Shown here in pieces: positions 1-3,000 of a DNA stretch of 62,855 nucleotides. Positions within the stretch are counted from its first letter, which is position 1. Each line of letters begins with the position of its first letter. The DNA lies in IMG/VR virus record IMGVR_UViG_2534681831_000041. One strand, written 5' to 3'. Made by a program: the position numbers. The stretch comes from a virus. Lineage: Duplodnaviria; Heunggongvirae; Uroviricota; Caudoviricetes.

Positions 1-3000
1 ACAGCCAATCTTTGGGGCAATGGAACAAATTGCCGCCCACTGTGAGTCATATTCATCCTGACTTTCCAGAACCATACGAATCGCCCGCTGACGGACTTCG
101 GGGGAAAAACGAGTATTTTTAGTCATCCTGTTTACCTCTTTCTCAGGGAGTTTAGTCTCCAGGATTTCCGGGGCGGTTCAGCCCTGCTAATAATCACCTA
201 ATCCAAACGCCTCATTCATGTTCTGGTACAGTCGCTCAAATGTACTTCAGATGCGCGGTTCGCTGATTTCCAGGACATTGTCGTCATTCAGCGACCTGTC
301 CCGTGTATCACGGTCCTGCGAATTCATCAAGGAATGCATTGCGGAGTGAAGTATCGAGTCACGCCATATTTCGCTATCAGGATTCTGTGTGATGGTTACA
401 TCGCCCGGCCCAGGGCTGTTTAGTCATCAGCGCTTTCTGACAGTGCTGAGATTTCAACCTGTTGCAGTAAAAATGAGTAGATATAAGGCAAGTGTGCTGC
501 CAAACCTATCTTTTACGGGGTGAAGGTAGATTTCGTTTGAAGGGTATCTGGTGTCCCCTGCAGGAATCGAACCTGCAATTAGCCCTTAGGAGGGGCTCGT
601 TATATCCATTTAACTAAGAGGACGTTGTTGCGTATTGATTTTGGTTGTTCACCATATGACTGATAATACCGTCTTTATGGTTTTAAAATCAAGGTGTAAG
701 TTCGTTTTTGTTCATGGTTGATTATCTTCTTTTGCGTTGAAAAGTGTTTTGTTCACTTGCTAATGCGTACATATTGAGTACAGAATACATTATAAACTTG
801 TGTACAGGATATAAAGCATTGGCACTGAGTGACACCAAACTACGAGGCCTATACGGAAAACCCTACTCTGGCCCTGCTGAAATCACCGATGGTGACGGGT
901 TAAGTGTGCGGATTACTCCAGCAGGAACTATCACGTTTCAGTACCGTTATCGCTGGAATGGTAAGCCAGTACGTCTTACTGTCGGGCGCTATCCGTCCAC
1001 TTCACTGAAGGACGCACGTGTTATCGTCGGTGAGATGCGCGCATTGTACATGAAGGGAGTTAACCCTAAAAATTATTTTGCCCCCAGTGATGGCGAATTG
1101 ACATTAAAAGAATGCTTGGATCAGTGGTGGGATAAGTATGTTAGCGGCCTGAAACCCAATACTCAGACGCTTTATAGATCTGTTGTGTACAACACCATGT
1201 ACACACAGTTTGAAGACTCGCCAGTTGCCGGTATCCCTGTATCGGCCTGGGCTCGCTTTTTTGACAAACAAGAAAGCCTCAACAAGAAAAAGGCTCGTGT
1301 TCTGTTGTTACAACTGCGTTCAGTTATTAACTGGTGTATCAGCCGCCAGTTAATCCCATCATGCGAATTACTCAAACTCAGTGTAAAGAATATTGGGAAG
1401 AAACCAGATGTGGGGAGTCGCGTACTTACCTATACGGAACTGGCAAAGATCTGGCTGGCACTGGAGAACTCAAAAGTGGTTACTTCCAACAAGCTGTTAC
1501 ATCAATTGCTATTGCTATGGGGGGCCAGGCTTTCTGAGCTACGTCTCGCTACAGCCAGTGAGTTCAACATGGAAGATCTGGTCTGGACAACCCCTAAAGA
1601 GCATTCAAAGATGGGTAATATTATCCGACGTCCGATATTTACTCAGGTTGAGCCTTATATTGAGCGATTGCTTAATATCGGATTTGATGTGCTGTTCCCT
1701 GGGCAGGAAATAGATAAACCTATTGACCGTTCGTCTGCTAATTTGTACATGAAAAAACTCAGGGCGAAAATTGATATTCCTGAATGGAGAACGCATGATT
1801 TTAGGCGTTCTCTGGTAACGAATTTATCTGGGGAAGGAATTATGCCCCACGTCACTGAAAAATGCTGGGGCATGAACTGGGAGGAGTGATGGCCGTGTAT
1901 AATAAACACGACTGGTTGTCGGAACAGAAAGATGCGTATGAGTTGTATGCTGATAAAATTTTCTGGCACGCTAAACAGCTCGGTTAATTCCTCCGGCTTT
2001 AAGCCATTGTTCAACGGCCTGACGGCTATATCGCGCCGGATGAGTAAGTACTGGATCAGGGAATCCGTGTTTTTTTCGCAAATTATACAAAGCTGTGCGC
2101 CTTTTTTGTAACAACTCAGAAACTTCTTTTTCGGTCATTAAGTTGATTTCCATAGTATGCTCTCCTTTTCTACATGTTTTTCAACAGCATAATAAACCGC
2201 CCGAAGGCGGTTGTTAGTTGATTGATGTACGGCGCATTTTTCGAAGGCTGGCAATATGCTTTTCCTTCTCAATTTCCGCTTTAATCATATGCAGTTCGTT
2301 GTGCTCTATTCGCTCAAATTCTTCATTAAATGCACCAATTGAAGTGGCTCTGGTTCTGCCGTCGAGCCTTCGGTAGATCACCTGAGTCAGAGTTACCTTG
2401 CATATTTCTACCGGATAGTTGTTGGCATCAACGAAAGACTGCCCGCGCTGGATCAGGACGAACACTGGTTGTATTCCTTGAGTGCCATATCATAAACACG
2501 GCATGCCGAGAGGTGTGTTGTAGTCAACGTCGTTCGTATCCTGAAAAGTCCATGTGTTGTGACGGTAACTTCCGGGGCTTTGAGTTTCACTGCATCAACG
2601 ATATGCTGATGTTTGCGGCTTTCGAATATAGAGCTGGAGATAACCACACTTGCTGTTAAACCGTAACTTTCAAATGTGATTTTCATGTCATTATCCTCGC
2701 AGTTATCCGGGCAACAAAAATAAATAATGTTGTTCCTGCGAATAACAGGATACCGCCCTTCATTAGAGAAAGGAAAAACAATATTAATGTACGCGGGTTG
2801 TTTCTCAAAATATTCTCTCTGTGATTCGCTCACTCTGACAATTCGTTGATCAAGTCACGGTATTTATTCAGTTCTTGCAGCGCCTTACATGCACCCTCCC
2901 ATCGTTTCTGTTTCCGCCCGGCGCGACGCGCTTCTTTCCGTGATTTACGTAGCAGGTCACCTATAATGTTGTGCTGCACTGGCTGCACTGGCTGCACTGG

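Follow-up and report, generated by a model that had tools for sequence, protein, structure and literature searches.

The closest described counterpart of the locus considered here is the integration module of phage phi24B (vB_EcoP_24B, HM208303.1), whose integrase has been studied experimentally, recombination activity being known for phi24B itself only (PMC3064807, PMC7581858), and whose expression is reported as constitutive (Fogg et al. 2011, as cited in PMC7581858). The crossover site used by this enzyme is 24 bp long (PMC7581858), the protein (ADN68388.1) has 389 residues, and its gene is convergent with, and overlaps, the excisionase gene xis. A second and broader point of reference is provided by the integrases of the P4/CP4 type, which combine an Arm-DNA-binding domain (PF13356) with the catalytic domain PF00589 and carry the residues R...HxxR...H...Y at the usual spacing. 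Escherichia coli DEC8B, an O111:H8 strain from a human in Idaho, 1986 (PMC2211750 Table 1; PMC3146454), harbors a Stx phage that has been classed as "Eru1-type" (PMC8044961), and its draft genome presents an integrase gene of the phi24B type that, unlike the one in phi24B, falls into two parts because one A is missing.

The window, that is, the whole stretch of 62,855 nucleotides that was analysed, contains a Stx2a prophage of approximately 61 kb, located between two copies of a 24-bp att core and inserted in the tRNA gene argW. The prophage comprises int, xis, an early region, three tRNAs, stx2A/stx2B, lysis genes, the structural genes of a short-tailed phage and IS1203; stx2A is found at 24471-25430, after the three tRNAs, and is followed by stx2B. 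The elements of integration are the following:

549-623, minus strand: argW, tRNA-Arg with anticodon CCU, the host integration-site gene (ARAGORN; annotated at the same place in relatives)
600-623, no strand: left 24-bp att core, TTATATCCATTTAACTAAGAGGAC, overlapping the first 24 nt of argW and repeated exactly at the right end
1971-2153, minus strand: excisionase gene xis, encoding a helix-turn-helix (HTH) protein, convergent with int and overlapping its 3' end (ORF list)
61824-61847, no strand: right copy of the att core, TTATATCCATTTAACTAAGAGGAC, an exact repeat of 600-623, at the prophage end adjoining yfdC

The core, equal in length to the crossover site of Int-phi24B (PMC7581858), is annotated as a "duplication due to insertion" in the Stx2a phage LC645409.1. 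The gene facing int bears the name xis in the phi24B record HM208303.1, the RefSeq relatives list it as an HTH regulator, and its product gives a weak Pfam match to HTH_17.

The integrase gene, as assembled, does not encode a complete enzyme in one frame. Direct reading finds exactly five A's at 1858-1862, flanked by CCCCACGTCACTG on the 5' side and by TGCTGGGGC on the 3' side. The zero-frame ORF listed by the ORF tool spans 744-1889 on the plus strand from a GTG at 744, and the integrase start in the RefSeq relatives is a TTG at 819. This frame runs through GAA AAA TGC and stops at 1889, so that its C-terminal end reads HVTEKCWGMNWEE, directly followed by the stop. The gene is thus distributed as follows:

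819-1889, plus strand: integrase frame as assembled, 356 aa, i.e., Int residues 1-348 plus eight out-of-frame residues, CWGMNWEE (EHW10144.1)
1858-1862, plus strand: A5 run, the apparent site of a 1-base deletion; A6 in E. coli strain 8B and in every relative read directly
1862-1987, plus strand: 3' part of the integrase in the +1 frame, 41 aa, i.e., Int residues 349-389 with His352 and the tyrosine nucleophile, Tyr361 (EHW10202.1)

The first product retains the Arm-DNA-binding domain and, with R237, H326 and R329, the greater part of the catalytic domain, the in-frame integrase sequence ending after K348, while the second, MLGHELGGVMAVYNKHDWLSEQKDAYELYADKIFWHAKQLG, was annotated in the draft as a separate hypothetical protein of 41 aa. 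Of the R-HxxR-H-Y set, the zero-frame product is devoid of the second histidine, in LGH(352), and of the nucleophilic tyrosine, in AVY(361), and the gene as written therefore does not place the full catalytic set in one polypeptide. Inserting one A in the run at 1858 yields a single intact integrase ORF of 389 aa in which, as in all relatives, R237, H326, R329, H352 and Y361 share one frame, these catalytic residues having been assigned from motifs and from the extent of the Pfam match rather than from a structural alignment. PF00589, whose profile is 172 positions long, matches the repaired protein from residue 202 to residue 364 (profile positions 2-168; E=1.6e-17) with 64.3 bits, the cut-off being 27.1; in the truncated protein the match is confined to residues 202-349 (profile positions 2-153) and still scores 51.4 bits. 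Since the match reaches residue 364 only after repair, the C-terminal box with His352 and Tyr361 lies in the other frame. The sequence-only reading of this DNA had placed the break of the integrase frame at the A5 run and had recognized the conserved C-terminus with the catalytic tyrosine in the +1 frame, and both observations hold by direct reading, ORF positions and Pfam extents; its expectation that A6 would give one intact gene is confirmed as well, the repaired protein being identical, over 389 of 389 residues, to WP_001218303.1 of strain 8B.

Once repaired, the integrase is easily placed among the known systems. It is identical to phi24B Int at 388 of 389 positions, A214T being the sole difference, a similarity far beyond chance; it has the same length and the same convergent, overlapping xis, and the 24-bp core of phi24B likewise flanks the prophage at both of its ends. 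The gene is, therefore, the known phi24B-type Int at its known primary site, with nothing novel about it, and its near-identity to the enzyme studied experimentally suggests that it would be functional in the strain. The resemblance to phi24B does not extend outside the integration module, as the early region of this prophage carries a helicase/DUF7146 replication module. The relationship with the P4/CP4-type integrases is also clear, since PF13356 (Arm-DNA-bind_3; residues 3-85, E=3.7e-17) and PF00589 both score well over their gathering thresholds, the catalytic residues of the repaired frame show the usual spacing, and a phmmer search against the PDB matched the N-terminal arm-binding domain alone, to the N-domains of the CP4-like entries 3jtz and 3ju0. 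Unlike in the P4/CP4 type, the core at which the prophage is inserted lies over the 5' end of the tRNA gene and not over its 3' end.

The origin of the missing A can be followed through the source of the window. By exact-sequence look-up, the 356-aa product is EHW10144.1 and the 41-aa product EHW10202.1, both from E. coli DEC8B; neither occurs on more than one contig, which for both is AIGG01000052.1 (GCA_000249815.2), where the gene lies at 819-1889 as in the window. Because the products match at identical coordinates, the window corresponds to the first 62,855 b of this 95,879-b contig of the 2012 DEC8B draft, whose sequencing platform was presumably 454 and/or Illumina. Of 5,426 complete E. 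coli genomes, CP077473.1 matches best; deposited as "O111:H8 strain 8B", with a human host and Idaho, USA, as its origin, it aligns over the full 62,855 bases with no mismatch and six one-base gaps, and it shares both IS1203 positions of the window. Strain 8B was taken to be DEC8B on the basis of the matching name, serotype, host and state, the absence of substitutions and the shared IS1203 positions, and metadata and sequence together indicate that the two are probably the same strain. No paper on either assembly, and none equating "strain 8B" with DEC8B, came up in a literature search by accession (CP0774xx/CP0775xx, AIGG).

The six gaps are of one kind only. All of them fall in A/T runs of 4-7, the window being shorter at five and longer at one, although A/T runs of 4 or more make up only 4.9% of the bases of the window; the two assemblies thus differ at approximately 1 position per 10 kb, by +/-1 and in A/T runs only. 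The relatives compared at these sites were 95NR1, 2012EL-2448, O157 644-PT8, E2855, phi24B and Stx2_EC3283, plus six IS1203 copies, and the sites are as follows:

1858-1862: int; A5 in the window versus A6 in 8B
6964-6969: T6 in the window versus T7 in 8B and 95NR1; breaks an ead/Ea22-like ORF
26949-26953: T5 in the window versus T4 in 8B, 95NR1, phi24B and Stx2_EC3283; splits a 645-aa SASA-family esterase gene (26197-28135)
37022-37026: A5 in the window versus A6, the 8B allele, which four relatives have; splits a 335-aa head-region gene (36601-37607)
43130-43133: A4 in the window versus A5 in 8B, phi24B and Stx2_EC3283; just 3' of a tail-fibre gene
52882-52886: T5 in the window versus T6 in each of the six IS1203 copies inspected from 8B and 95NR1; within the frameshift/pseudoknot region of the IS1203 transposase

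At all six sites every relative carrying the site sides with 8B, and the window is the lone outlier. Besides int, four of the five other discrepancies split annotated genes, namely those for the ead/Ea22-like protein, the SASA esterase, the 335-aa head-region protein and the IS1203 transposase, and introducing the 8B allele into the window restores, at four sites, ORFs of the full length that the relatives have in their annotation (int, with 389 aa, ead/Ea22, the 645-aa esterase and the 335-aa protein). Errors in homopolymer length typically arise in drafts made by pyrosequencing or from long reads left unpolished, and the window resembles such data in differing by +/-1 only and mostly in a way that splits conserved genes, which appear, as in drafts of this type, as two adjacent ORFs in neighbouring frames. 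Differences confined to homopolymers, the absence of substitutions, an outlier that stands alone and ORFs that are broken together form the signature of a base-calling or assembly error and not of evolution. It is thus very probable (roughly 0.93) that the length of the A homopolymer at 1858-1862 was miscalled in contig AIGG01000052.1 of the 2012 draft, and the same explanation would apply to all six discrepancies, which are best regarded as draft errors rather than true differences between stocks. DEC8B itself would then most likely carry A6 and an intact 389-aa tyrosine integrase of the phi24B type, beside the excisionase, at the left end of the Stx2a prophage in argW.

A useful control is offered by a frameshift that the two assemblies have in common. 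The recT gene (minus strand, roughly 10965-11915) is frameshifted by a +1 insertion, the run at about 11818-11821 being A4 here and A3 in 95NR1 and Stx2_EC3283, and this lesion is common to the draft and to the complete 8B genome, in which RefSeq marks recT as "frameshifted"; within the recombination module of the prophage, recT thus appears to be a true pseudogene. Real homopolymer frameshifts of the strain are thus reproduced by the second assembly, as is the one in recT, while those in int and at the five other sites are not. In the late region, an antirepressor gene (about 29869-30451) is marked "frameshifted" in 8B and in 95NR1 and is noted as "likely to be interrupted" in phi24B, and its break looks like an old interruption common to related Stx phages rather than an assembly error.

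Among the records searched, the A5 form also turns out to be unique to the draft. An 81-base query containing A5 retrieved no complete E. coli genome at 99% identity or more; with a query of this length one gap and one mismatch give nearly equal percent identity, and the search was therefore repeated with the A6 version. The resulting 82-base query found matches in 113 phage records and in 209 of the complete E. coli genomes, and among the matches listed, taken from rows spread down the ranking, even the weakest was ungapped (82:82, 96.3%, three substitutions only), from which it follows that A5 occurs in 0/209 genomes and 0/113 phage records. At the protein level, the repaired 389-aa sequence is found exactly on at least 1000 contigs and the truncated one on one contig only. 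An A5 allele circulating in a lineage was rejected on these grounds, i.e., the lack of genomes matching the A5 query at 99% or more, the ungapped A6 matches and the single contig with the truncated protein.

The sequence-only reading had left two explanations side by side, a homopolymer sequencing error and a mutation that prevents the prophage from excising. The former is strongly backed by the A6 of strain 8B, the five further homopolymer differences, the zero substitutions and the uniqueness of A5. The latter finds no such backing, given that the genome presumed to come from the same strain has A6 and that the draft is the lone outlier at six sites. A real 1-bp deletion from A6 to A5, arisen in the DEC8B stock sequenced in 2011-12, is accordingly improbable. 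Its consequences would be severe, because an integrase deprived of His352 and Tyr361 would retain its arm- and core-binding parts and could bind DNA, but would be unable to cleave it, so that the Stx2a prophage could neither excise nor re-integrate, and what the assembly reads is consistent with this, with A5 in the run and a truncated ORF lacking profile positions 154-172 of PF00589. Furthermore, slippage in homopolymers is a real mode of mutation, and the recT frameshift is genuinely fixed in the strain. Against this, the complete genome 8B, evidently of the same strain, reads A6, the draft stands alone at five more homopolymer differences with no substitution in 62.8 kb, and independent mutations would be needed in three further conserved genes. 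In E. coli mutation spectra, substitutions are several-fold commoner than indels, even in mismatch-repair mutants, and since substitutions outnumber indels in this way, six indels accompanied by no substitution are very unlikely as biology. That the stock of 2011-12 truly carried A5, with the nucleophile lost and the prophage locked in argW, still inducible for toxin and lysis but without clean excision, appears slightly less likely again. A mixed culture, in which the run would vary in phase between A5 and A6 and the draft consensus would have taken up the A5 subpopulation, is very improbable: homopolymers can indeed vary within populations, but a run of five or six A's is short for a contingency locus, five other unrelated runs would require the same explanation, and, among the matches listed, A5 is found in no other assembly of more than 300.

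Even less credit can be given to the idea that the split is meaningful, full-length Int being made in low, regulated amounts through programmed –1 frameshifting of ribosomes at the A run or through slippage of transcription there. A –1 slip of tRNA-Lys on the AAA within GAAAAAT would bring the ATG in frame, and programmed frameshifting is used by the IS1203 elements of the same window; however, the zero-frame codons ACT GAA AAA TGC contain no slippery heptamer of the X XXY YYZ form, and efficient transcriptional slippage is known from runs longer than A5. Moreover, a programmed event should be conserved, and the split arrangement is present in 0/209 genomes and 0/113 phage records among the matches listed, its two products being found on one contig only. 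Both forms of recoding were rejected because of the missing heptamer, the short run and the lack of conservation of the split form. The least probable reading, to the point of being negligible, is that the draft is right at the A run while the complete 8B genome and the other records are wrong. Long-read assemblies too can miscall homopolymers, but the same mistake would have had to be made in 209 genomes and 113 phage records, including HM208303.1, in many laboratories and on many platforms, and the supposed errors would always have had to restore conserved ORFs. An error in the complete genome instead of the draft was rejected, all other records siding with 8B at all six sites.

A miscall in the draft has practical implications, in that GCA_000249815 has been used as the mapping and annotation reference for DEC8B (PMC7693793). 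With about one homopolymer error per 10 kb in this 63-kb stretch, the draft is unfit for calling pseudogenes, and it would report false ones for the integrase, the esterase, the head-region protein, the ead/Ea22-like protein and the IS1203 transposase. Describing the Stx2a prophage as defective or "locked in" on the basis of the draft would be misleading, and CP077473.1 is preferable for this purpose. Were the frameshift real, it would merely add one more decayed prophage integrase, a common thing.

Several further features of the prophage were observed. The 5' end of argW, on the minus strand, is at 623 and is overlapped by the att core, so that in the lysogen argW is preceded by phage DNA and its native upstream region now begins at 61848; a weak sigma-70-like match is present in this phage DNA, from 692 to 663 on the minus strand, such matches being no commoner than in shuffled sequence. 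In the early region, a type II restriction-modification pair and a helicase/replication module are found at 15139-17558 and 19568-22049, respectively. The pair consists of a BsuBI/PstI-family endonuclease and an Eco57I-like methylase and lies beside a LexA-like repressor (17653-18366), and the module, with a DEAD/DEAH helicase and DUF7146, replaces lambda O/P. The three phage tRNA genes (24129-24380) are directly 5' of stx2A/stx2B (24471-25711), which are of the Stx2a type; the first is called tRNA-Met (CAT) by ARAGORN versus tRNA-Ile by RefSeq, presumably reflecting a lysidine-modified CAU anticodon.

The contig begins within a copy of IS1203 (window positions 1-180), from which it follows that the assembly broke at a repeat, and a complete IS1203 is located in the prophage at 51950-53258, between a 421-aa gene and a 2806-aa gene with an LPD38 domain; both positions, common to strain 8B, differ from the IS pattern of 95NR1. 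Finally, a perfect 9-bp tandem repeat, GCTGCACTG, is present in seven copies at 2973-3035, inside an ORF on the minus strand (2830-3228) for a DUF1627 protein, in which it encodes a (VQP)n tract. The homologous DUF1627 coding sequences are 390, 399 or 408 nt long, depending on the strain, and the number of copies of the repeat therefore varies between lineages.
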